A program made the position numbers and the translations under genes. Source: an uncultured Pelagibacteraceae bacterium (lineage in GTDB: Bacteria > Pseudomonadota > Alphaproteobacteria > Pelagibacterales > Pelagibacteraceae). From it: a DNA stretch of 64,000 nucleotides. The stretch spans positions 20,489-84,488 of the forward strand of contig CACIWX010000002.1 in assembly GCA_902590465.1 (NCBI GenBank), in the 5' to 3' direction. The notes below the pieces were generated by a model, which was given only the letters and a program-made list of their open reading frames with translations, was not told where the DNA came from and did not search any database. Shown here piece after piece: positions 1-12,408 of the stretch; positions within the stretch are counted from its first letter, which is position 1; every line of letters begins with the position of its first letter.

Positions 1-386
1 TTTTTTATAGATAAGTTGGCTGCTTGCCTGCTTTGTCTTAAAATCGATACCTCATTTATTGCTATACTTTTTTTTGATTTATTTTTTGTTTTAACTGACA
101 TTTCAAGTGGGGAAATATTAACAGTTTTAGCTTTAGATAAATTTTTTACGATTAATTTATTGGAAAACTTATTCATTAGAAATCCATAATTACCTGAATT
201 AATTCCATAAAATGATTTTTTTGAATTTTTATTTTTCTTAAGAGTTTCAAGCATAAAACCGTCACCCCCAACAACTATTATTACATTAGATCTTCTAGTC
301 TTTTCTTTACTGAATACTTTAACAATTTGTTTTTTTATCTTTAAAGACCTAGAGTTAGTATCTGAAATTATTAATGGTTTGTTCAT
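1..386 (-). CDS. nadK: NAD kinase (5' part; runs off window start)
   Basis: Manual translation from ATG at 386: MNKPLIISD...IIVVGGDGFML...YGINSGNYGFLMN...AINEVSI, with the GGDG, GxxGFL and NE motifs of NAD kinases. Confidence 0.88.
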   Translation of the reverse strand, partial: MNKPLIISDTNSRSLKIKKQIVKVFSKEKTRRSNVIIVVGGDGFMLETLKKNKNSKKSFYGINSGNYGFLMNKFSNKLIVKNLSKAKTVNISPLEMSVKTKNKSKKSIAINEVSILRQSRQAANLSIK

Positions 387-394
387 CTTTTAAG

Positions 395-480
395 TGGTGC
401 CCTCGGCCAGACTCGAACTGGCACTCCCAAAAGGGCAAGGATTTTAAGTCCTTTGTGTCTACCAATTTCACCACGAGGGC
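395..480 (-). tRNA. tRNA-Leu(TAA), encoded CCA
   Basis: Reverse complement GCCCTCGTGGTGAAATTGGTAGACACAAAGGACTTAAAATCCTT...GTTCGAGTCTGGCCGAGGGCACCA: acceptor stem, D-loop GG, anticodon TAA, long variable arm, TTCGA loop. Confidence 0.97.
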
Positions 481-599
481 ACGTCGTTGTTTTTGTTGTT
501 ATTGTTAATATATTAATACACAAGAGTTTTAAATAAGTAAAAAAAATTTATTTTCTGTCTCTATCTCCTAGTTTGCACCTAGTCTTCCCATATTTTATA
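441..599. repeat. Direct repeat copy A: tRNA-Leu 5' half plus upstream arm (att-like)
   Basis: Ungapped match to 5377-5535; 159 nt with 10 mismatches by manual count, first 54 nt identical. Confidence 0.95.
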
Positions 600-608
600 G
601 GATAAGAA

Positions 609-3600
609 TTAAAGAGATTTACTGTCTTTAACTCTGTCTTTTCTAAAAGTACGATTTTCATTAGTTTGATAATCATAAGTGTGTATGAATTTATTATCGA
701 TCGACCTAATTTTAACTTTTCTTTGACTTGCCCAGCCTGAGGCATTCACGTAAGAAATATTATACTCACTACCCTCTTTCCATTTAAACTTAACATCTTT
801 AGATTTGAATTCTTTCTTAGACACATTTTTTTTTCTAGATTTTTTACTAAATCCACCTTTACAGCTAACACAAACTATACCCATTCCTGATCTCAGATTT
901 GGATCTTTAAAATCTTTTATCGGTTTATATTCTTTACATTTATCACAATGTTTTGTTTGTCCTTCTCTAGTTTTTTTTATTGTCTCTTCTATTAAATCAG
1001 CAACATCTTTTTTGTGTTGAGATATATTCAAATTAGATTTTTTCGAAAATGTTTGTTTTAATTGTTTATCGAGATATTTTATTGGGTTTTCTTTAATTAC
1101 AAATTTATTAAGCCTAATAAATATTACACCGTAAGATTCTAATATTTTTTGTCTTTCCTCATGATCAACAGTATAATAATCCTCGTAATTAGTGTCTGTA
1201 ACTAAATCTTTGTTATCAAAGTGTTCCTTCAAGCCGTCATACTCTATTACAACTTTTTTCTCATCATTATTTTCATCTTTGTAAATAACTAAAAAGTCCA
1301 CAACAAATTTTGGATGATGATAGTCTGGATATATTTGTTTAAAATAGTCTCCAATAGGAAATTGACTTTTTAATTCAACTTTGTTTTTATTCTCGAGATA
1401 AAAAGGTGTTTGTTTAAACCATTGTAATACTTCCTTTTCCATTGGAGATTTAGGATCTAAATCTTTATTTTTTGGAAGTTTTTCCTCACTTGCCCATATA
1501 TTATTAATAAATCTTAATGCATTTCCTATTTCATTTTTGAATTCTTCAACTGATTTGCTCATAATAAAATACATTTTTTCTTGTACACGACTTAACCCTA
1601 CATTTAGTCTTTGAGCTTTTTTATCACCATATTCCTCCAAATCTTTATTTGCTAAATCAACTGGGAAAATCCAATTAAGTTTATCTTTGTTTTTAGTTGC
1701 AACCATAGAGTAAAATACGATCTGTCTCTCCTCTCCTTGACAAGTATCAAAGGTCATTATTTTTAACTTTAATTCTTCTTCGAAGTAGTCTTTATCCTTA
1801 TGTTTTTGTATTAAAGATGTAATTAATCTTTGTTGATCGGTAAAAGGAGTAATTATCCCTACTGATACTGACGTTTTATCAGATTTTATTTTCTCTAATT
1901 GTTTGATGATGTGTTCTGCTTCTTTTTTATTTGAATTATTGATTTCATCTTTTATTTCATATTTTAAATTTTCAAAATGAATTACTTCTTTAATTGGTTT
2001 TGTTCTCAACCTAATTGCCTGTAAATCATTATTATAAAAAGTTTTACTGCAGTAAGCGATATGCTCAGGGTAACCTCTAAAATGTTTTTTAAGTCTAGCT
2101 TCATAATTTGAAATTCTTTGAAAGAAATCAAGGATAGAAGTTTTAACATTAAAACTAGCAAGTCTTTCTAACTGGATAGCATCTTTTGAAATATTTTCTC
2201 TAAAAACTTTTCGTAATTTATTTTGATAAGTATTATTAATAATTGATGTAGCCTGGTAGGATTGTAAATTACTAAATTGTTTTTTATCTCCTAAAACTAA
2301 AATCTTTTTTGCTCTAATTATTGCCGGAAAAGCTTGAGCTATACTTACTTGAGAGGCTTCATCAATAATAATTAAATCAAACATTCCCATATCTAGATCT
2401 ATATACTCAGAAAAATCTCTAACACTTGAAATTATGCATGGAAAAGCATTTTTTAATTTTTGAAATTGGTCTTTTGGAAACTTTTGTTTGGCTCTTATAA
2501 TTTTACTAAGACTTCGAGCTGTATTTTTATTGTTATCGTAAAATTGGATAATTCCTCCGTCAATAACATCTGTCATCTTTGTAGTATGTAATGATTGAAG
2601 TTTTTTCATCAAAGTGGCGTAATCAAAATTTTCTGAATGATCAAAAATTCCTGTAAAGAATCCTTCTAAATTATAATATTTTTTAATTAATTCTTTTTTT
2701 TCTTTATCGAACGTTGCAAATTTATTTTCAAAAATAGAGTTTATTTTTTTTATATTTATTCCTAAATCTCTACATAATTTTTTATCGTTATTTAAAACAT
2801 TTATTGAATGTCTGAATTTATTAACTAGTTTAATATCTTGCTGAAGTTCAGAGTAACTCTCATATTTTTTTATTATTTTTACTGTTTTGTCAAAATTAAG
2901 TTTTTTATTACTAGTAAAGTCTTTGAACTGAGATAAATAATCATTGTATGAGGTCAATTTTTCATAATCCACTTTGAGATTAATATCTTTTTTAATTTTT
3001 AACTTTCTTTTAATCTGATCACTTAACTCGATTATTTTTCCAGACTTAAAAACACCTCCAAAAATACCTGCGGTCTCCTGACTATATTCCTCGAGTTTCT
3101 TATATAGGTAAGTAATATTATTGGTTGAAATATTTCCAAAATAATAAAATGTTTTAAAAGAATTTTTATCCTGTGAAGCAAATGTATCAATTAAGGAGAG
3201 TAAATTAAAAAAATCTGAAAGGTTTTCTACAGTTGCATTGCTATAAGAATCTTTTACTTTCTCAACTAATATTTCTAAGTCTGCAATTTCATTAAGATTA
3301 TCTATAAAATTTTCAAAATTAAATTCGTCTTTATTGATAGAATTTTCAGCAATATAATTCTTTATAGTATCAGCATTGATTGCCAAATCTTCTTTACTAC
3401 AAGTTTTTGAAATTTCCTCGAACTCCTCAAATTTTTCCTTATCTATACTTTTATAGTGATCAGATAATATTTGTAATCTATCATTAACAACGTCTGAAAT
3501 TTGTTTAATATTTTCATTAGTTTTTTCTGAGTGTGATCTCTGGGCTCTATGAAAATCTCTAAGATTATCAATTGAAGATTTTGCGAGTATTTTATTGTAA

Positions 3601-5207
3601 GTATTTCCCATCTTTCCTAATCTAAGAATAGGATTTTGTACGTTATGACTCCTTCTAACCTGATTAAGTGTTTGGTCTATTTTATTTTCAACAACATCCA
3701 AAGCTTCACGAGTATCAGACAAAATTAAAATAGACTTATTTTTTAAAATATAATCAAATGCTATTGCAGATATTGTATGAGACTTACCAGTTCCTGGTGG
3801 TCCTTCGACTGTCACATATTTACATTGATCATGTTTTAGCGATCTAATTATTTTTTGTTGTTCCGGATTGAGAGGTATTGGGCTTTCATAATTTAATCTT
3901 TCCGTGATATCTAGTCCCTCCCATTTATCTTCTACCTCTTGATTTATTACTTCAGGCTCTTTCAGTAAAAAATCAGTTATTAATTGCTTAAACATCTCAG
4001 CAATATCACTGTCACCTTGAAGTAATTTTTCTAATATATTTTCATAGTCATTTATTAGTGACTCGTCTGACTTGTCAAAAACACAAAAAGAGCAGTTATT
4101 GGAGAGAACAAAATAAATATTTTTTGATATTTGTTTTTTTGAATTAGAGAGATCAATATTCCCCTCAGTTCTTAATTTTGAAATTAACGAGACGTATATA
4201 TCATTAAATTTTGGTAATAATGTATTGTCCTCACTTACAAATAGTTTTCTTTCCTCATCAAATTTTTCTACTTTCTTATCTTCTTTTAATAAAGTTTGAA
4301 AAGCGAAATCAATTGCACGTTTATTTACAAAGAATTCATTTGAAAAAGAAACTTTAAATAAACTTTCAGTAGAATATTCTTTGACGTTTATTTGCGAGTA
4401 AAAAAGTGGAAACCTTCTTTTTTCAATTTCAATTTCCCCAAAATACAAATATATTTCTTTTTTATCTAAGTTTTTAAAAGAATTTACTATCTCTTGTAAA
4501 TCATAATACAAGTCTTTTACCTCAAAATTTAAAAATAAATCTAGCAATCTAGAACTGATATCTTTTTTATTAAATAATTCCGTAGTCTGCTCTTTAGGTT
4601 TATATTTTTTATCTGCCAATATATTGTTGAATATTAATGGTATTCCTTCAGATAATGGATCTAGCACAAGATCTGTTAATTTTTCTTCTAAGGTGTATAA
4701 AGACTCAATTTCAAAATTACTTTGACTACCGATTAATGGTTCCATTTTTTCAGTAATCGGTTTTATAATGATATCTGTTATATCTTTTTTTATAATTTCG
4801 TTTATTTTATCATATGCTTCGTCAGGTCTATTTCTATGACTAGATGCAAACTCTTTAATAGTTTTAACAGAAAGCAAAACTATTCTCTCTACATCTTTAT
4901 CTTTAATTTGTTTTATTAGCTTTTTAACAAGATCAACTGAGGTATCATTTAATTTTACACTGTAAGAACCTTTTTTTATTGAAATATCATTTTGAAAACC
5001 ATTTTGTTTTGTCAAAAGTTTTCTTATGTATTCATTAAATTTTTCATATTTGGATAAATTAATACCAACTTTAAAATTTTTTTCGTTTGTGTACTTGATT
5101 GATCTCTTGGGAAATCTTTGGGATTTAAATCCATTCTGTAAAAAGTGCATGTAGTATTTACAAAGCTCTTCTACAAAATTATTTCTACCTGCCTTTGTTG
5201 CCATCAT
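609..5207 (-). CDS. SF1 (UPF1/DNA2-like) helicase fused to Vsr/DUF559-like nuclease, Zn finger and C-terminal WYL-like domain; putative anti-phage protein
   Basis: GPPGTGKS (~aa469), IIDEASQ (~aa949), GDKKQ, HFR, TFDTCQGEE, RLNVGLSR; SPMEKEV..QFPIG..VDFLV..VIEYDG..H..R..LESYG..FIRL; CDKC/CVSC; ISYVNASG..SQRKV..ENRTFRKDRV. Confidence 0.85.
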   Translation of the reverse strand: MMATKAGRNNFVEELCKYYMHFLQNGFKSQRFPKRSIKYTNEKNFKVGINLSKYEKFNEYIRKLLTKQNGFQNDISIKKGSYSVKLNDTSVDLVKKLIKQIKDKDVERIVLLSVKTIKEFASSHRNRPDEAYDKINEIIKKDITDIIIKPITEKMEPLIGSQSNFEIESLYTLEEKLTDLVLDPLSEGIPLIFNNILADKKYKPKEQTTELFNKKDISSRLLDLFLNFEVKDLYYDLQEIVNSFKNLDKKEIYLYFGEIEIEKRRFPLFYSQINVKEYSTESLFKVSFSNEFFVNKRAIDFAFQTLLKEDKKVEKFDEERKLFVSEDNTLLPKFNDIYVSLISKLRTEGNIDLSNSKKQISKNIYFVLSNNCSFCVFDKSDESLINDYENILEKLLQGDSDIAEMFKQLITDFLLKEPEVINQEVEDKWEGLDITERLNYESPIPLNPEQQKIIRSLKHDQCKYVTVEGPPGTGKSHTISAIAFDYILKNKSILILSDTREALDVVENKIDQTLNQVRRSHNVQNPILRLGKMGNTYNKILAKSSIDNLRDFHRAQRSHSEKTNENIKQISDVVNDRLQILSDHYKSIDKEKFEEFEEISKTCSKEDLAINADTIKNYIAENSINKDEFNFENFIDNLNEIADLEILVEKVKDSYSNATVENLSDFFNLLSLIDTFASQDKNSFKTFYYFGNISTNNITYLYKKLEEYSQETAGIFGGVFKSGKIIELSDQIKRKLKIKKDINLKVDYEKLTSYNDYLSQFKDFTSNKKLNFDKTVKIIKKYESYSELQQDIKLVNKFRHSINVLNNDKKLCRDLGINIKKINSIFENKFATFDKEKKELIKKYYNLEGFFTGIFDHSENFDYATLMKKLQSLHTTKMTDVIDGGIIQFYDNNKNTARSLSKIIRAKQKFPKDQFQKLKNAFPCIISSVRDFSEYIDLDMGMFDLIIIDEASQVSIAQAFPAIIRAKKILVLGDKKQFSNLQSYQATSIINNTYQNKLRKVFRENISKDAIQLERLASFNVKTSILDFFQRISNYEARLKKHFRGYPEHIAYCSKTFYNNDLQAIRLRTKPIKEVIHFENLKYEIKDEINNSNKKEAEHIIKQLEKIKSDKTSVSVGIITPFTDQQRLITSLIQKHKDKDYFEEELKLKIMTFDTCQGEERQIVFYSMVATKNKDKLNWIFPVDLANKDLEEYGDKKAQRLNVGLSRVQEKMYFIMSKSVEEFKNEIGNALRFINNIWASEEKLPKNKDLDPKSPMEKEVLQWFKQTPFYLENKNKVELKSQFPIGDYFKQIYPDYHHPKFVVDFLVIYKDENNDEKKVVIEYDGLKEHFDNKDLVTDTNYEDYYTVDHEERQKILESYGVIFIRLNKFVIKENPIKYLDKQLKQTFSKKSNLNISQHKKDVADLIEETIKKTREGQTKHCDKCKEYKPIKDFKDPNLRSGMGIVCVSCKGGFSKKSRKKNVSKKEFKSKDVKFKWKEGSEYNISYVNASGWASQRKVKIRSIDNKFIHTYDYQTNENRTFRKDRVKDSKSL

Positions 5208-5220
5208 TTAATCTACCAAA

Positions 5221-5358
5221 TTCTAGGTTCATCTCCTAGTCTGCGCACTAGTTTGCACAAACAAATTTGCCTTGATTTTAAATACTAATTGATGGGATAA
5301 ATAAAAAAGTTAGGATTGATAATGTTTTGAGACTAACTGAGACTAACAGAGACAATAA
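5221..5358. repeat. Arm-like region: three CTAG(T/G) motifs plus 3 x 10-bp GAGACTAAC-type tandem repeat
   Basis: CTAG at 5223, 5236, 5248; gagactaact-gagactaaca-gagacaataa at 5329-5358. Confidence 0.8.
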
Positions 5359-5376
5359 GAAATGTGAATCCCTGGT

Positions 5377-5535
5377 ATTTTAAGTCCTTTGTGTCTACCA
5401 ATTTCACCACGAGGGCACGTCGTTGTTTTTATTGTTATTGTTAATATATTAATACACAAGTGTTTTAAATAAGTAAAAATAATTTATTTTACGTCTCTAT
5501 CTTCTAGTTGTCTTCTAGTCTTCCCATATTTTATA
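5377..5535. repeat. Direct repeat copy B: truncated tRNA-Leu (5' 40 nt, 5377-5416) plus upstream arm
   Basis: Matches 441-599; tRNA similarity stops just after the anticodon loop. Confidence 0.95.
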
Positions 5536-5569
5536 TGACAATAAATGAGTTTTTTTCTGTCCGCGGCAA

Positions 5570-5856
5570 CTGGCAACAGAACGCACCTTGCACTACAATT
5601 AAGAATGATAAATAATCAAGCATGATTGATTTTAAAAAAAATCCTAAATTAGCATTATTCACTTATGGAATATTATTATGTTCTGCTCTGATAGAAATAG
5701 GTGCAGAACTTGGACTCCATGAATTTGATGATTTTGCTTCACATCACGGCTTAGCAATTTTTTCTATCGGAAGTTTAATTGCTAATTGGGAAAAAATTTC
5801 TCAAATATTAATTAAAGGTAAAAAAAAGAAATATTAAGCACCTGGCAACAGAACGC
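5570..5856. repeat. 15-bp perfect direct repeat CTGGCAACAGAACGC flanking a small gene
   Basis: Copies at 5570-5584 and 5842-5856. Confidence 0.85.
5622..5837 (+). CDS. Small membrane protein (2 hydrophobic segments), unknown function
   Basis: 71-aa ORF, two hydrophobic stretches, His-containing loop (LHE..SHHG), basic tail. Confidence 0.65.
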   Translation: MIDFKKNPKLALFTYGILLCSALIEIGAELGLHEFDDFASHHGLAIFSIGSLIANWEKISQILIKGKKKKY

Positions 5857-6016
5857 TACTACTTAATTTAATATTTAAAAATATAATCCTCTTTAATAAA
5901 AGATTAAATATTTTGTAATATAGGCTTAATAATTAGATGTTCTGATTACTTATGTCTAAACTAAAAAAAATATTAAAAAAGATTTATTATTTTATCTTCC
6001 CTAAGGAGCTTAAATA

Positions 6017-6064
6017 ATGTGGCCATACAACGATAAAGAAAATGAGTTTATCTCATTGAATTGA
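6017..6064 (+). CDS. Putative 15-aa micro-peptide MWPYNDKENEFISLN
   Basis: AAGGAG SD at 6003-6008; TAATG overlap with a preceding 21-aa ORF (5952-6017). Confidence 0.35.
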   Translation: MWPYNDKENEFISLN

Positions 6065-6089
6065 ACTGTTTTAGAGAATATTATTTTCA

Positions 6090-6710
6090 TTATTTTATGA
6101 TATTTTCAATAATATAATTTGATTTAGCATCATTCATTCTTATATTTTTAAATGTGTAAAAATATTTTTTTTTTTTTATTTTTTTTATTTTGGAAATAAA
6201 TAAAAATTGAGTATGAAAAACAAGGAAATTAATATGATTTTTATTTAGTTTTTGGTTAATTTTACCATTTTTTCGATGACTATGTAATATTAAACCAAGT
6301 TTAAAATCTTTTGTGATGCCTCTAATCTTGACTAGATTGCTTTCTTTAAAAGAAATAAAATAAACATTCTTCTTAAAACCATTACATGTTTCAAGCAATC
6401 GATTTAAAGTATTTTTCCTAAGCAGAGGCTTAATCTCAACTAACACTTTTGTATTTACAGTTAAAATTTTTAAAAGATCACATAGTTTTGTTATCTTGTA
6501 TTTTTTTAAATTCTTATCAAGAATTGTTCTAGTTTTTTTTCTGATATTGAATAACCTTCTTAAGCTATAATCATGAAAGCAAATGGGTGTATTATTTTGG
6601 GTAAAGTGAATATCAGTCTCAATATTAAACTTTTTTTTTATACACTCTTTAAATGAAGTAATATGATTTTCTCTAAAGTTTTTTTCAATTAATCCTCTGT
6701 GTATAAACAT
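6090..6710 (-). CDS. Glycerophosphodiester phosphodiesterase family protein
   Basis: HRG..EN..F, ETDIH, CFHD..L.R, VEIK, FISF motifs. Confidence 0.8.
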   Translation of the reverse strand: MFIHRGLIEKNFRENHITSFKECIKKKFNIETDIHFTQNNTPICFHDYSLRRLFNIRKKTRTILDKNLKKYKITKLCDLLKILTVNTKVLVEIKPLLRKNTLNRLLETCNGFKKNVYFISFKESNLVKIRGITKDFKLGLILHSHRKNGKINQKLNKNHINFLVFHTQFLFISKIKKIKKKKYFYTFKNIRMNDAKSNYIIENIIK

Positions 6711-7924
6711 TATTTTAATCCCTTGGTTCTATGCAATATGATCCATCCAAAAAAGAGCAGTAAAAGAACTGAGGCAAAACCTATCCTTTGATTTTCAGTT
6801 ATGAAAGTAATGGTTCCTACTAAAAATGGGCCAAAAAAAGACGTTAGCTTTCCAGAAGTAGCAAATAAACCAAAGGCTTTATTCTGATCCTCAATTTTTG
6901 TTAATTTAGTTATCATGACCCTACTAGCTGATTGTATTGGTCCTATAAATAATCCCAAGAAAAATGAAAAAATAAAAAAACTAATTTTTGACTGTGTAAA
7001 AATGATTAAAATGGAGAAGAAAATAAGACATATCAAGGAAAAGGAAATTGTTTTTTTTGAATTATATTTATCATTGAAATATCCACCAAAACTAGCACCT
7101 ATTAAAGCAGCAACATTCATTAAAACAGACATCATTAAAAGTTCATTTATTGATAGTTTAAATACCCCAACAGCAAAAATACCTCCCATGACAAAAATGG
7201 TATTTAAACCATCAGCATAAAGTAGCCGTGCAAACAAAAAACGAGTTGTGTTAGTTAGACCATTATTCCAAAGAATCTTTTTTAAACTATTTGATTTTTT
7301 TTTGTTTGGTTCAACTTTTTTATATTTTGTTTGACTTAATAGTGGATAGGAAAAAATGAGAAACCAAAGGGCTACAAAAATGGCAGTGGATCTAAAATTA
7401 ATTTTTTGATCTAAATCGATTAAATAATTTGATTGAATTAATAAAATAATGGTCAAAATAAGTGTGATAATGCCACCTAAATACCCCAGCGCAAAAGCAA
7501 AACCAGACACCTTTCCCACATGTTGTTTATCCGCTGAATGAATTAATAATGAATTATAGAAAATAGAACTTAGTTCATAAAAATAGTTTGCCAAACAAAC
7601 TATGATTAAGGTAAATAAAATATATTCAGTAGATGGTTTTGCAAACCATAATGCTGCTGTAAAAAATATACATAAATAGGTGCTTGATTTTAAGATAATT
7701 GAGTTTAAATTCTTCTTATCAGCTAAATTTCCTAAAAAGGGTCCGCTTAATGCAATGCATAGTCCTGATACTGAAATGGCCCAACCCCAATATGCCTGGC
7801 CATTAACCATATCTTGAACAATTGACTCCGCAAAATAATTTGAGAAAACAAAAGTTATAATAACTGTTGTAAAGGCAGAATTAGCAAAATCATAAAGAGA
7901 AAATTTATAAGATTTTAAATTCAT
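6710..7924 (-). CDS. MFS transporter (UMF1/ATG22-like)
   Basis: LYDFANSAFTT, FYNSLL, SGFAFALGYLGG, QSASR motifs; about 12 TM segments. Confidence 0.85.
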   Translation of the reverse strand: MNLKSYKFSLYDFANSAFTTVIITFVFSNYFAESIVQDMVNGQAYWGWAISVSGLCIALSGPFLGNLADKKNLNSIILKSSTYLCIFFTAALWFAKPSTEYILFTLIIVCLANYFYELSSIFYNSLLIHSADKQHVGKVSGFAFALGYLGGIITLILTIILLIQSNYLIDLDQKINFRSTAIFVALWFLIFSYPLLSQTKYKKVEPNKKKSNSLKKILWNNGLTNTTRFLFARLLYADGLNTIFVMGGIFAVGVFKLSINELLMMSVLMNVAALIGASFGGYFNDKYNSKKTISFSLICLIFFSILIIFTQSKISFFIFSFFLGLFIGPIQSASRVMITKLTKIEDQNKAFGLFATSGKLTSFFGPFLVGTITFITENQRIGFASVLLLLFFGWIILHRTKGLK

Positions 7925-7938
7925 GCTAATTTAATATC

Positions 7939-7977
7939 TTATAAATCCAGAACCACGATTGCTAAAAGTTTTTTCAT
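7939..7977 (-). pseudogene. Orphan signal-peptide stub MKKLLAIVVLDL*
   Basis: 7949-7979 matches 10200-10230 (start of the 396-aa gene) at 30/31 nt. Confidence 0.7.
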
Positions 7978-7978
7978 T

Positions 7979-8941
7979 TTAAAGTTTATTACAATTGTAC
8001 CCTAAATTTATTAGGTTTAATTTATTACATTGATCTGCAAATCTTATTTCATCTATGTACAAAATTTGAACTGTTGACGCTTCCTCATACTTCCATTTAG
8101 TTTTCACTTTTTTTCCTTTAGCCTTTATTTGATTTGCTCTGTCTTGATAAATACCAAAATTTGTTGACGAGAGTGATGAGTTTCCTGGCATTTTATTTTG
8201 CATATCTACAATTTTTTTGCCGTTAACCCATATGAATAAACTTTTCTTATTTGGTGTATGTACTATTACATCTATCCACTTTCCTAAGTGATTAGAAAAA
8301 TGTTTTAAATCAAAAAAAGGAGGATCGTGATATTTTTCGCTTATTTTTCTACAAATATTTTTTCCCAGAAGTTTTTTGCTAATTTTCACGCACTCATTGT
8401 CGTGAAGAAAACTTCTTAACTGTACATTTACAATTCCTTCAGGTGAAATACCCATTCTATAATGTGCACCTTTGCCTTTTCTATGTATTTGATTGAATAT
8501 AAGTGGCGTATTTGAATGAATATAATTTTTAGGGATTAATACGGAAAATGAAAGCCATTTACTTCCCCAATCCCGATACTTTGTTCCTATAAAAACTCGT
8601 CGTGCTCCCTCATAGCAATTGTTCCAGTTATTTATGCTATCATTTGATTTCTTGTATATCCCACAATCACCTGGATGACTTTCAAATTTAATAGAGATAT
8701 TATCATCTCTTGAAATTTCATCTGTGATTATCAAACAGTGATCAGGTCCTTTACCATTTTGCCAGCATGAATCCCAATGGTTCATTCTTAATTTTTTACC
8801 TTCAAGAACATTATCAGGTAAATTAATTAAACGACTATTACCACTACCTTTGCTTCCAGCTAATTCTTTCCACACTATTGGATCAGCATATGAATTATTT
8901 AAAAAGAGAAAAAATAATAAAAATATAGACAAACTTTTCAT
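7979..8941 (-). CDS. Secreted polysaccharide-lyase-like (ConA/jelly-roll) protein
   Basis: Signal peptide; SIKFE..PGDC, WLSFSVLIP, IFNQIH, GKWIDV, IWVNGK, NFGIY, LYIDEIR. Confidence 0.65.
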   Translation of the reverse strand: MKSLSIFLLFFLFLNNSYADPIVWKELAGSKGSGNSRLINLPDNVLEGKKLRMNHWDSCWQNGKGPDHCLIITDEISRDDNISIKFESHPGDCGIYKKSNDSINNWNNCYEGARRVFIGTKYRDWGSKWLSFSVLIPKNYIHSNTPLIFNQIHRKGKGAHYRMGISPEGIVNVQLRSFLHDNECVKISKKLLGKNICRKISEKYHDPPFFDLKHFSNHLGKWIDVIVHTPNKKSLFIWVNGKKIVDMQNKMPGNSSLSSTNFGIYQDRANQIKAKGKKVKTKWKYEEASTVQILYIDEIRFADQCNKLNLINLGYNCNKL

Positions 8942-8990
8942 CGTTAAAATTTAAATTATCAGTATTAAATATTTATGAAAAGTAAAAATT

Positions 8991-9037
8991 ATCTTCTAGT
9001 TTGCACCTAGTCTTCCCATATTTTATAGGACAATAAG
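8991..9037. repeat. Third copy of CTAGT-pair arm motif
   Basis: atcttctagtttgcacctagtcttcccatattttatagga nearly identical to 563-602. Confidence 0.9.
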
Positions 9038-10228
9038 TTAGTTTTGTTTCCAAACAAGATTTACTAATTCTTGAGGTTTCCAACTAATAGCAAAACCATT
9101 CGTCTGAATTATTTTGTCATTTTTCCAATCAATTAAAGATAGTCTTAAACCGTGTCCTCTCATTTGAACTAAATTTTCTACATTATACCCATTTAACCAA
9201 AAGAACATTGCATATTTAGGAGCAAATTTTTTCTTAGTGGGAACGGCATTCTTAAAAGCCTCTTGTAACTTTTTTGCCTCACAAGAGTTTTTATCCTTCA
9301 TTAATTCAATAACGTATATTCCAAACCTTAGCCAATCTTCTCTAGTAAGCATGATAGATGACGATGATATTGGAACTCCCTTTTTGTCTAATAATATTTT
9401 ACCCTTTGACTCAAAACCTGCAGTTTCTGAAATATTTTTTTGAAACCATTTAGCAAACTTCTTTTTTCCTCCTAATACATTGATCATATCTAATGTTATT
9501 AAATCAGTATTAGGATTTGAGTATTTAAATTCTTTTGGTCCTTCTGTTTCTAATTTTTTAGGGTGCTTATTAAGAATAGTTGTTAAGTCAGATTTCTTTC
9601 TGTGCGTTTCCTTTAAAATATTATAATTTATTACAAATTGATCTCTAGCCAACATATTTAAGGAGTCTTTTAATTTTACATGGCCATAAAATGAGTCTTT
9701 AATTTCTGGAGAGTAATCACCATGAGTTTTATCTAAATCTAAAATATTTTGACAAGCCATTTTTAAAGCAGCAACACCAACTATTGATTTGCTCCTAGAC
9801 TCACCATTTATAGGTTTGTTATTAAAAATATAATCTCTTTTCCAATCGTGAATTAATTCTCCTTTATCAAATACCATCAAACTAGAGATATCTCTGTAAT
9901 ATACATAATCATAAATTTCTTTTGGAAGAGGTTTTATATTTTTTTTAATTGGTCTGATTGTTTTTTTTGCTGGTTGTATTACAATTCTTTTTAACCCTCC
10001 ATTATTTTTGTGATCTCTATTTTTCAAACTTGCTTTACGGTAATAGCCATGAGCCCAATAATCGTGTCTTTCTGTGCAAAACTTGCAATCATTAGGAGGG
10101 TATTCTGCTTTTGGAAAATCCTTCTTCCATCTTTCTAACGAAGGAGACCATTTATTTTTTGGTGGTGTTGCAATTAAGGTGGTGCTCCACAACAAACCTA
10201 GAACCACGATCGCTAAAAGTTTTTTCAT
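9038..10228 (-). CDS. Secreted serine hydrolase, beta-lactamase/AmpC-like fold
   Basis: Signal peptide; SRSK (SxxK), FKYSN (YxN), LTREDWLRFG, RGHG. Confidence 0.75.
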   Translation of the reverse strand: MKKLLAIVVLGLLWSTTLIATPPKNKWSPSLERWKKDFPKAEYPPNDCKFCTERHDYWAHGYYRKASLKNRDHKNNGGLKRIVIQPAKKTIRPIKKNIKPLPKEIYDYVYYRDISSLMVFDKGELIHDWKRDYIFNNKPINGESRSKSIVGVAALKMACQNILDLDKTHGDYSPEIKDSFYGHVKLKDSLNMLARDQFVINYNILKETHRKKSDLTTILNKHPKKLETEGPKEFKYSNPNTDLITLDMINVLGGKKKFAKWFQKNISETAGFESKGKILLDKKGVPISSSSIMLTREDWLRFGIYVIELMKDKNSCEAKKLQEAFKNAVPTKKKFAPKYAMFFWLNGYNVENLVQMRGHGLRLSLIDWKNDKIIQTNGFAISWKPQELVNLVWKQN

Positions 10229-10543
10229 TTAATTTTTAATATATGTATCTGGATAGTTAGCAAGATGCTCATCTGAAATTGGAGTCATTACAGCAGTTTC
10301 TAAAACAGCTCCAGCTTCCTTTCTTTTCTCAGCAAGTTCCTTATCATCCTTAAAAGCTTGGAGTGCTTCCATGTTTGGAAATTGCATTACTGTATGAAGT
10401 TTTGTCGGGTCATCTTTTTGTGTGCCTGCAAAAACAAATTTTATTCCATGTTCTTTTAATTTTCCATCCTGCGCATAGACCATCTCTTTCCATGTTTTAA
10501 ATCCTTTAGTAATTGTAATTTCACCTTTGACTAGTATTCCCAT
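10229..10543 (-). CDS. Small alpha/beta-barrel protein, DUF3764-like
   Basis: F.TW....D..LKEHGIK..F.G...DDP..L....QFP..EA...F....LAEKRKEAGA pattern; AAGGAG SD. Confidence 0.5.
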   Translation of the reverse strand: MGILVKGEITITKGFKTWKEMVYAQDGKLKEHGIKFVFAGTQKDDPTKLHTVMQFPNMEALQAFKDDKELAEKRKEAGAVLETAVMTPISDEHLANYPDTYIKN

Positions 10544-10607
10544 ATCAAACTCCTTATTTATATTTTAAAAGTTTTCAATAAATAATCTTACCAAATTTTC
10601 CCTTTCT

Positions 10608-10660
10608 GTCTTCTAGTTATCTTCTAGTCTACACAAATTATTTAGCCTTGATTTCTAATG
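10608..10660. repeat. CTAGT-pair arm motif, distal type
   Basis: CTAGT at 10613 and 10624, followed by cacaaa..gccttgattt as at 5248-5278. Confidence 0.75.
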
Positions 10661-11356
10661 TTAATTGAGGATTTTTTTAAATTTATTTTTTAATTCATCT
10701 TTAATTTTATCTTTAATCACATCTTGGTCAAATGTTTCAGTGCTTAATTTTCCTTTTAGTTCGTTGAGAGCTTTATCAATAGTTTTTTTTGCAATTGATT
10801 TGTAATTTTTGCTCTTTTTTGTATTGCCAAGATTTTCAAATTTCATATCACTTAACTTCACTGTTTGGTTGAGATTAAGTTTAGTGGAAGAGGCCGAAAT
10901 ATTAATGTCTTTAATATCTAATTGGTTTACTAGAAACTTTTTATCATTTGTTTTTCTGCTTGGACTGTTTTTGGTTTCAAGGGTCTTTTTTAACGAATTT
11001 AAATTACTTTTAGTTATATTGGTTATATCAAAGTAATAGTTTAAACTAATCCCATCGAATATAATATTATCAATTACTAAAACATCATCGTTTAATGATA
11101 AAGGATCTACCTTGACAAAAGCTTGGTCGACTACCAAAAGTTTACCTGGAAAATCTTTATTATTAATCTCAATCTTTTTTAAATTAATTTCTCCACTTAA
11201 ATAACTTATATCAAAATCGGCAATTTTGACTGACCTATTGATATTTTTAGATAAAATACCCTCTAGGTTTTTTTTAATTATTATATCACTAAAAAAAACA
11301 ATAAAGATTATGGATATAAAAGTTAAAGAAACTATAATAATTAAAAATTTTTTCAT
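10661..11356 (-). CDS. AsmA-like membrane-anchored protein
   Basis: Likely start MKKFLIII at 11356; N-terminal TM followed by beta-rich AsmA-type pattern. Confidence 0.55.
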   Translation of the reverse strand: MKKFLIIIVSLTFISIIFIVFFSDIIIKKNLEGILSKNINRSVKIADFDISYLSGEINLKKIEINNKDFPGKLLVVDQAFVKVDPLSLNDDVLVIDNIIFDGISLNYYFDITNITKSNLNSLKKTLETKNSPSRKTNDKKFLVNQLDIKDINISASSTKLNLNQTVKLSDMKFENLGNTKKSKNYKSIAKKTIDKALNELKGKLSTETFDQDVIKDKIKDELKNKFKKILN

Positions 11357-11454
11357 CAATTCTTTTATAATTATATCTCTTGGTTTAGCTATAAGTCTAC
11401 ACAAAATAATTTAAATCTGTTAAAAGATTTTTAAAAAATTACATAAAATACTTC

Positions 11455-12408
11455 ATGAAAAAAATATTGATTTATAATTCTGGCGGAGGTTTAGGAGACT
11501 CAATACAGATAATTCCATTACTATTAAGTCTTAAAAATCATTATAGAAGGTCAAAATTTTTTTATTTGGGAGCTCATACTAATCACTTTGATGGAAAACT
11601 AAAAGAATATAATATCAAAATTGAAACGCTTGATTTAAACTTAAAATACTTTGGATTTAGATGGTGGCATTTATTCTATGTTAAAAGAAATTTTGAAAAA
11701 AAAAATGAAGCTAAATTTGATTTAATTATTGATTTACAAACAAAATTTAGAAATTCCCTAATTCTTAAGAGAATTCCTCATAACTATTTTTATTCAACTA
11801 CTTTTAATAACATTTTTTCATCAAAAAAAATAAAATTTGAAACAAAGAGTCATTTAGAAAATTTAAGCATTTTTTTGGATGAAAAAATTAAATCAATAAA
11901 TTTTAACTGTAATAAATTACCCAAAAATTTATTAAGTGAAGCAAAAAGATTGTTACCAAAAAACAATTATATTGGATTTTCTATTACGCAAGGAAATGAA
12001 TATAGAAAAAAAAGTTGGTCAATCTATAAATTTATTTCATTAGCAAACAAATCTTTGATTAAAAATAAAATTCCAGTTTTTTTTATTGAAAAAAATCAAG
12101 AACATATAATTGAGAAAATTAAAAATCAGGTACCTTCAGCTTTATTTCCTGAGACTGGCTCAGACCTTTCTTGTCCTGCTTTAGTAACTGCTTTATCCTC
12201 AAGATTAGATCATGCAGTTTCTATAGATAACGGCGTAATGCATATGATGGGTTTAGCTAATATACCAATGATAGTTTTATTCGGACCTACGAATTCTAAA
12301 AAATTTGCTCCTAAAAATAATTATGTAAAAGTACTTGATAGTAAAAAAATCCACAACACATCAGATATAGAGTCTATATCTGTAGAAGAAGTTTATAACT
12401 TAATTTAA
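11455..12408 (+). CDS. Glycosyltransferase family 9 (heptosyltransferase-like)
   Basis: GGLGD, FDLIIDLQ, KKSW, IDNGVMHM, LFGPT. Confidence 0.88.
   Translation: MKKILIYNSGGGLGDSIQIIPLLLSLKNHYRRSKFFYLGAHTNHFDGKLKEYNIKIETLDLNLKYFGFRWWHLFYVKRNFEKKNEAKFDLIIDLQTKFRNSLILKRIPHNYFYSTTFNNIFSSKKIKFETKSHLENLSIFLDEKIKSINFNCNKLPKNLLSEAKRLLPKNNYIGFSITQGNEYRKKSWSIYKFISLANKSLIKNKIPVFFIEKNQEHIIEKIKNQVPSALFPETGSDLSCPALVTALSSRLDHAVSIDNGVMHMMGLANIPMIVLFGPTNSKKFAPKNNYVKVLDSKKIHNTSDIESISVEEVYNLI

Follow-up and report, generated by a model that had tools for sequence, protein, structure and literature searches.

The tRNA-Leu locus and its repeat

The DNA analysed here, a stretch of 64,000 nucleotides from an uncultured Pelagibacteraceae bacterium (assembly GCA_902590465.1, contig CACIWX010000002.1, positions 20,489 to 84,488 of the forward strand; hereafter the window), carries beside its tRNA-Leu(TAA) gene a 4,936-bp unit, cassette 1, which is the subject of this study. 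The intact tRNA gene lies at 395-480 on the minus strand. A direct repeat at 441-599 and 5377-5535 (159 nt, ungapped, 10 mismatches, copies 4,936 bp apart) comprises nucleotides 1-40 of the tRNA and the 119 nt upstream of it; all 10 mismatches fall in the upstream part, hereafter the arm, and none in the tRNA part, and a BLAST E value of ~1e-66 within the genome excludes a chance origin. The unit holds one long open reading frame (ORF), for which Pfam gave only AAA/superfamily-1 helicase domains, and no recombinase was found in it; the family profile of the partner integrases described below matched nothing in the six frames of window positions 1-11,500. A first-pass annotation, made from the sequence alone, had described this repeat with its 10 mismatches, a single gene and no recombinase, and the alignment, ORF list, Pfam and integrase profile confirmed that description. 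The genome is a draft, 66% complete, and the absence of PF00589 from it is uninformative, since even the single-copy Xer-sized match of 128 of 178 relatives is missing.

Our comparison indicates that the repeat is two things, a duplicated 39-bp attachment (att) core and the homologous 120-nt arms of two different cassettes. Base 441, directly ahead of the anticodon loop, was A in 135 of 135 distinct full-tRNA contexts, whereas the half copies had C, G, A or T in 97, 46, 30 and 16 cases, respectively, among the matches listed. A base that is fixed in full genes and free in half copies points to a crossover within the loop and a core of 39 bp. The core, tRNA nucleotides 1-39, accordingly spans 442-480 (minus strand), identity of the half copies beginning at 442; the 7-nt anticodon loop at 442-448 (minus strand) is the likely crossover region, and a second core, the displaced 5′ half of the tRNA, lies at 5378-5416 (minus strand). 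The first-pass description of the repeat as tRNA nucleotides 1-40 plus ~120 nt upstream therefore stood as a layout, but the duplicated part is only nucleotides 1-39 and the arm behind the second core belongs to another cassette.

The proximal arm of cassette 1 (481-600) lies upstream of the tRNA and is absent from empty sites. The arm behind the second core (5417-5535) is the proximal arm of a neighbouring and likely older unit, cassette A. This was indicated by 1 mismatch in 119 nt between it and the arm immediately upstream of a full tRNA at five other loci (L109, L385, L387, L392 and L394), where that arm heads the same four-gene cassette A; the proximal arm of cassette 1 has 9 mismatches to it. 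On this evidence cassette 1 stands in front of cassette A, as had been proposed when an insertion ahead of an earlier element of the same family was suggested, and the position of cassette A together with its lost distal core suggests that it is the older of the two.

For the locus comparison 20 loci of the genus were fetched, and 178 genomes of the genus were searched for the core. Typically the locus runs from NAD kinase through tRNA-Leu, a variable block, GT9 glycosyltransferase, cinA, sfsA and map to purB. Empty sites, which the first-pass annotation had proposed to look for, were seen in 5 of the 20 loci, where tRNA and GT9 are separated by ~65-72 nt of native sequence with only 53-61% identity to the window arm; since the native upstream sequence of these relatives differs, a segmental duplication does not account for the repeat. 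In six of the 20 loci there were one or two additional 5′ halves, and in four of these the native upstream sequence and GT9 follow the last half, the geometry expected if an incoming element supplies a 5′ half with its own arm and displaces the resident sequence outward. The core was found in 131 of the 178 genomes and, by hand count, in two to four copies in 42 of the 131. Identical cassettes stop exactly at the 39-bp core and are followed by divergent sequence (L033 compared with L034, and L031 with L390). Among the matches listed, the titles of nearly all genome records with the core read Pelagibacteraceae, Pelagibacter or Pelagibacterales, and the host is accordingly taken to be SAR11; outside SAR11, the core half has a match in L102 (CBDDBV010000005.1), a record titled as a Bryobacteraceae metagenome-assembled genome.

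The whole stretch of the cassette was spanned by no contig in the four sequencing runs checked. The link between helicase gene and proximal arm was, however, found in contigs of three other studies (548-1583, 578-1547 and 574-1028), two of which yielded contigs that extend well into the distal arm (3283-5335 and 3103-5335), and contigs of independent origin that join the helicase gene to the arms argue that cassette 1 is not an amplification chimera. This settles in favour of the locus the concern over an assembly artefact that had been raised with the first-pass annotation.

Arm words and integrase-bearing partners

The distal arm of cassette 1 (5208-5377, ~170 nt) is 70-88% identical to the arm ahead of half-tRNAs at many loci; the first-pass annotation had captured the repeat and missed this conserved second arm, together with arm pieces at 8990-9036 and 10561-10668. 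Within the proximal arm an arm-site doublet, ATCTCCTAGT and TGCACCTAGT, lies at 563-583 (plus strand) with an 11-bp period and the 6-nt code CTCCTA. The distal arm has a doublet, ATCTCCTAGT and GCGCACTAGT, at 5231-5252 (plus strand) with the same code, which is also that of the integrase-bearing element L228, while the doublet in the proximal arm of cassette A (5499-5519) has a different one, CTTCTA. A GAGACT triplet with a 10-bp period (5329-5354, plus strand) adjoins the core and is common to the autonomous, integrase-bearing elements. The spacing of these sites is tight: across 65 units the distance of arm sites from the core was held within 3-4 bp, the proximal doublet lying 81-83 nt from the tRNA in 61 units and the distal doublet at -145 to -148 from the core in 59. 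The doublets are likely arm-type sites, putatively bound by the N-terminal domain of an integrase, and the triplet likely represents directionality-factor sites or further integrase sites. Our model for this assignment is the KplE1 site layout, in which arm-type and directionality-factor sites overlap the integrase promoter region beside a tRNA (PMC2951348).

The proximal arm also contains a promoter-like motif, TTTACT-N17-TATTAA, at 513-541 (minus strand), and the form TTTACT-N17-TAT(A/T)AA recurs on two arm backbones, in 39 of 45 cassette clusters. The conservation of this motif makes it likely that the proximal arm supplies a replacement tRNA promoter. In 37 of the 45 clusters the first cargo gene begins 140-260 nt from the core and is read in the direction of the integrase, so that cargo may use a promoter in the distal arm.

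Our collection scans of genome records and metagenome contigs were samples, and counts derived from them hold among the matches listed. The loci together gave 84 distinct core-to-core units, 4 of which contain an integrase. Screening with the family profile and by BLAST with 11 tyrosine-recombinase-like ORFs found no integrase remnant in the other 80, a screen that covers the tyrosine type, serine recombinases having been screened in the window unit alone. The arm code was assessed in 65 units of 781 to 9,381 bp, after exclusion of the 4 units with an integrase and of 15 whose arms were unreadable by rule (other arm families, truncated arms and loose core matches). The 6-nt doublet word took more than 20 forms and was the same at both ends in 52 of the 65 units and, with each cargo cluster represented by a single unit, in 35 of 45. 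Shuffling (20,000 rounds each) gave a mean of 2.40 matched clusters (maximum 10) when free and 4.95 (maximum 13) within arm backbones. The window unit was itself scored as a miss through an anchoring error, its sequence having ATCTCCTAGT at both 563 and 5231. As kin share words by descent, the shuffle figure demonstrates linkage of the two ends rather than present activity.

A scan of viral contigs for the core returned 23 loci; in four of them the gene for a 545-aa tyrosine integrase starts ~100 nt from the core, and three of these four have terminal repeats. In L051 a primase and a RusA-like gene lie beside the integrase, and the nine ORFs scanned there gave no match to a capsid or to any conjugation family. 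Metagenome contigs added L219, L225, L228, L230, L250, L275, L296 and L319, and in a genome record, L130, an integrase element sits between a full tRNA and its 5′ half, 7,776 bp apart. These autonomous elements share the arm plan of the window, with one doublet ~82 nt upstream of the tRNA end, another 145-149 nt ahead of the core and, in all of them, the GAGACT triplet adjoining the core. Their proximal-arm word is shared with a cassette cluster at 7 of 12 autonomous attP sites, including that of L228, which has the word of cassette 1. L228 is a 7.8-kb element, tandemly repeated on its contig, with the window word on both arms and 93.7% identity to the window over the 48 nt adjoining the core; judged by its sequence, this type, which also has a 97-aa putative directionality factor, is the best candidate helper for cassette 1. 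The first-pass annotation had recommended a search for integrase-bearing elements or phages with the same att arms; the former were found, but in 50,697 phage records the arms gave matches to the tRNA part only (best 40 of 249). A small satellite-like element is the likely helper, rather than a phage.

The partner integrase was modelled from an 89-sequence alignment (pLDDT, the predicted local distance difference test score, 84) with a lambda-like catalytic fold. Its residues 29-128 match the arm-type binding domain of the integrase of the high-pathogenicity island (HPI; 3jtz, Z 8.2, root-mean-square deviation 2.1, 77 of 77 aligned), a Z score in the range where, by the tool's own warning, common folds can also score. 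The predicted model shows the two parts of a heterobivalent tyrosine integrase, an N-terminal arm-binding fold and a catalytic domain. PF00589 was recognized in 68 of the 89 family members, and PDB sequence searches with the integrase alignments returned nothing significant. Integrase relatives occur in only 2 of the 178 genomes of the genus, at 33-38% identity.

Several further observations concern the same core. In L051 (143-220) and L228 (6752-6830) the distal-arm sites lie within the first ~25 integrase codons, a low-confidence region of the model, so that a change of word alters the N-terminal tail of the protein. Other integrase families are present at the core in L067, L069, L342, L049 (G035), L080 (4889) and L396 (36), with different arm words, such as GGGCAAC, GGTGTGTAAG and CTACACG, and some integrase-less units have arms of those types. 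L219 holds two different autonomous elements on one contig (8822 and 16657), each with an intact matched attP, and is either a co-integrate or an assembly chimera. Many viral contigs (L052-L073) have a 5′-half core without these arms, two of them carrying a full tRNA there, which indicates a site common to several kinds of element.

Proposed mobilization in trans, its alternatives and known systems

We consider it probable, by roughly two chances in three, that the 4,936-bp unit is an integrase-less cassette with a complete att site, and that a related ~7.8-kb integrase/primase element with the same arm word lent it the tyrosine integrase for insertion at the anticodon loop; from the sequence evidence we infer mobilization in trans. 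In this process a circle comprising distal arm, core, proximal arm and cargo would recombine with the tRNA gene. The geometry of empty and filled sites suggests that the intact tRNA-Leu(TAA) of the window is a host 3′ half joined to a cassette-borne 5′ half at integration, and the rebuilt gene would probably draw its promoter from the proximal arm. Resident sequence would be pushed to the far end, whether native upstream sequence or, as in the window, the arm of an older cassette. If, as is likely, the N-terminal domain of the integrase binds the doublets, the 6-nt word would serve as an address that picks the helper, the L228 type in the case of cassette 1. Deletions between doublets of adjacent cassettes would likely fuse larger units (as at 8990-9036), and virions or vesicles are candidates for the transfer of DNA between cells.

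Several results weigh against this account. No circle joint of a cassette was seen in the contigs of four runs, which break at repeats and, among the joints listed, gave ones with short sides that were discarded, so that the circular junction for which the first-pass annotation had proposed a search did not appear for integrase-less cassettes; two RNA runs contained only 5-7% of the sequence words and were left out. Terminal repeats were present on four viral contigs that encode an integrase and on L258 (44 nt), which has none and may be a circle or a collapsed repeat. [quoted passage not shown] Matching words across the core were seen at 1 of 34 integrase-less half-core junctions, compared with 7 of 7 beside an integrase, by crude anchoring. 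The automatic rule left 10 of 45 clusters unmatched, several through anchoring errors, and matched words can reflect passive inheritance from a parent element, so that by themselves they are no proof of present activity. On the side of the enzyme, the fold score is qualified as described above, and Pfam Arm-DNA-bind_3 matches only 2 of the 89 integrase family members, weakly. A sigma-70 scan called no promoter in the proximal arm, and sigma-70 and terminator scans of both arms gave nothing above shuffles.

The best-surviving alternative, which we hold unlikely, is that the cassettes are decayed elements resembling cis-mobilizable elements (CIMEs), moving only in cis when a functional neighbour integrates, co-excises with them and is later lost. 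Such a route is known for CIMEs (PMC5704250), tandem accretion is common, with up to four cores per genome, and in L130 an autonomous element does lie in front of a cassette-type arm remnant. The cassettes nonetheless lack integrase remnants, keep both arms intact at fixed spacing and have, outside the sites, arm backbones unlike those of autonomous elements, and identical units stand alone at the site with host-specific native upstream sequence right behind the core. We give still less credence to the proposal that an integrase founded the first cassettes and that host homologous recombination now spreads them through the identical tRNA and 80-95% identical arms. The arms do offer 120-170 bp of common sequence, few genomes contain the helper family, and rearrangement independent of an integrase, which also counts against movement by borrowed integrase, is visible in collapsed junctions, in core-less repeated arms (L032, L109) and in arm scars at GT9 (L036, L037). 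Against this, identical cassettes end at the 39-bp core, which would need one crossover within 39 bp or two in divergent flanks, and homologous recombination would not need tight spacing and the matching of a four-copy code.

It is very improbable that the doublet is a second, integron-like recombination site at which cargo enters an empty mini-element and duplicates the word. The start of the cargo does lie only tens of bases from the doublets, where fusions are also seen, but autonomous elements have the same matched doublets at the same offsets, one of them inside the integrase coding start, and no empty mini-element of ~300 bp was seen, the smallest of the 65 units being 781 bp. That the repeat arose by simple segmental duplication or through an assembly error, as the incomplete draft and the unspanned stretch might suggest, can practically be dismissed given empty sites without the arm, two arms that trace to different cassettes and other-study contigs linking cargo and arms.

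Beyond cassette 1, borrowing of integrases might extend to a whole population of cassettes. We advance tentatively, at somewhat under even odds, the view that SAR11 keeps a standing family of purpose-built, att-only cassettes, in which the arm word selects among many rare satellite integrases acting on one tRNA core; these cassettes would excise, travel, reinsert across species, stack and fuse, and would form a main route by which the most abundant ocean bacterium gains single genes, with parallel systems at other tRNAs. Such a route would add single genes to the streamlined genomes of SAR11, whose islands have been reported to be without canonical mobile elements (PMC11796062). A second core is present in about one-third of the genomes with an assembled site, while cells seldom contain a member of the integrase family. 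Matched words name a candidate helper for each cassette, which makes the mechanism testable in vitro or in Escherichia coli, and natural pairs of integrase and word on one core would be a resource for arm-site specificity and possibly for SAR11 genetic tools.

Parts of this picture are known already. Pelagiphages integrate at SAR11 tRNAs, including Leu(TAA), through 5′ or central cores and tyrosine integrases (10.1101/410191); those of the HTVC019P type resemble cassette 1 in that a phage-borne 5′ part restores the tRNA in several cases, but they are full phages with their own integrase. The duplication of a 5′ half, which the first-pass annotation had set against the 3′-end duplication of most integrative elements, is indeed rare among genomic islands, at 159 of 3,919 (PMC4383910), but is not new for these tRNA genes. 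Cassette 1 has the intact tRNA and the same-orientation displaced 5′ fragment upstream by which Islander defines an island, and lacks an integrase inside; island finders that require an integrase or a 2-kb minimum (PMC4383910) would miss these cassettes. Cassette insertion with a partial tRNA repeat is reported for four SAR11 islands, and the available text of that study describes no mechanism, arms or helper element (PMC11796062). The Pelagibacter mobilome commonly includes tyrosine-recombinase elements close to tRNAs (PMC11876622). To our knowledge, no account of an att-only cassette family, an arm code or its helpers has been published, within a literature search that largely left subscription journals uncovered.

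Cassette 1 works like a CIME or a non-autonomous satellite derivative. With CIMEs it shares the lack of integration and transfer genes, both att sites kept and tandem stacking at the target gene (PMC5704250). CIMEs are described there as decayed remnants of integrative and conjugative elements (ICEs) or integrative and mobilizable elements (IMEs), moved in cis by conjugation, whereas the present units are 0.8-9 kb, without integrase remnant, and have arm words tied to particular helpers with integrase and primase; their arms are homologous to satellite-like elements, and no ICE or IME parent was seen. [quoted passage not shown] L051, L130 and L228 have the tyrosine integrase, the primase, a size of <17 kb and circular or concatemeric as well as integrated forms, capsid absence being drawn from the nine L051 ORFs. 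The window unit differs in having a single superfamily-1 helicase ORF and neither integration nor replication genes, and no circle or concatemer of it appeared in contigs. An integrase is missing from about 20% of VEIMEs, which might recruit one from the host or a helper; the available text of that paper gives no att-arm anatomy or arm code, and our comparison is by description, not by sequences (PMC9618062).

Tycheposons of Prochlorococcus likewise are cargo elements at tRNA sites, stacked with partial tRNAs, newer ones pushing older ones inward, but they are defined as carrying an integrase (10.1101/2020.12.28.424599), whereas the cassettes have an att site only and the integrase of their partners lies at the end far from the intact tRNA. 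The heterobivalent integrases of the P4, HPI and KplE1 type share the N-terminal arm-binding domain (PMC2951348; PDB 3jtz); here, in contrast to them, arm words vary within a family on one core and are reused by integrase-less cassettes.

Cargo and neighbouring cassettes

The cargo of cassette 1 is a 1,532-aa superfamily-1 (AAA_11/AAA_12) helicase gene at 609-5207 (minus strand), which starts at the distal arm and reads in the direction of the integrase of autonomous elements. A weak nuclease-type match lies near its C-terminus, and by sequence it is likely an anti-phage helicase-nuclease of no named system. Mokosh, Hhe and ProA were rejected as its identity, the matches falling below the curated cut-off (ProA 113 against 1500 bits, Hhe 75 against 2000) or, for PADLOC MkoA, MkoC and PDC-S37 (E 1e-37 to 5e-35), covering parts of the profile only. 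A relative 67-70% identical is present in a 5,145-bp unit at tRNA-Leu(GAG) (L403, 5415-10646, on contig C4 of G173). This unit is bounded by a 29-bp repeat of the tRNA 3′ end, has similar doublets with an 11-bp period at both ends and holds only one other ORF of 100 or more aa; on its sequence features it is a parallel cassette system at a second tRNA.

Cassette A (5417-8989) carries, by Pfam, a 71-aa ORF, a GDPD gene, an MFS/ATG22 transporter gene and a polysaccharide-lyase-like gene, and its copies are 99-100% identical in L033, L034, L109, L385, L387, L392 and L394, in hosts with flanks of 70-82% identity. It is followed at 8990-9036 by a collapsed junction with cassette B that has one hybrid doublet and no core and recurs in L033, L109, L385 and L392. 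This junction likely arose by deletion between arm sites of two tandem cassettes; at the hybrid doublet the core and most of both arms are gone, and the larger unit keeps the outer arms. Cassette B (9000-10668) has genes for 396 aa and 104 aa and a truncated distal arm (10561-10668, code CTTCTA), with no distal core in this genome; L031 and L390 hold it as a stand-alone unit bounded by cores, at 99% identity. Over window 5378-10668, identity to the beginning of the intact composite in L385 is 99.3%. Cassettes A and B were found alone, fused or in reverse order. Between hosts they share 97-100% identity where the flanking genes share 69-82%, and of 6 pairs tested 5 had units of 98-100% identity with flanks of 51-83%. 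The older A-B composite looks fixed in place in the present genome.

Behind it a DUF748 gene (10661-11454) replaces the remainder of the distal arm of cassette B, the core and the native upstream sequence, and a short arm-like remnant lies near 11385-11411. Scars in L036 (1641-1772) and L037 (1665-1784) lack both cargo and a second core; in them a proximal arm up to its doublet is fused directly with the final ~20 nt of the native sequence that precedes GT9. A motif of ~25-30 nt flanks the 71-aa ORF of cassette A (5555-5590 and 5840-5860) and recurs twice just after the tmRNA gene, which lies on another contig (G000, contig C1, near 30095 and 31328).

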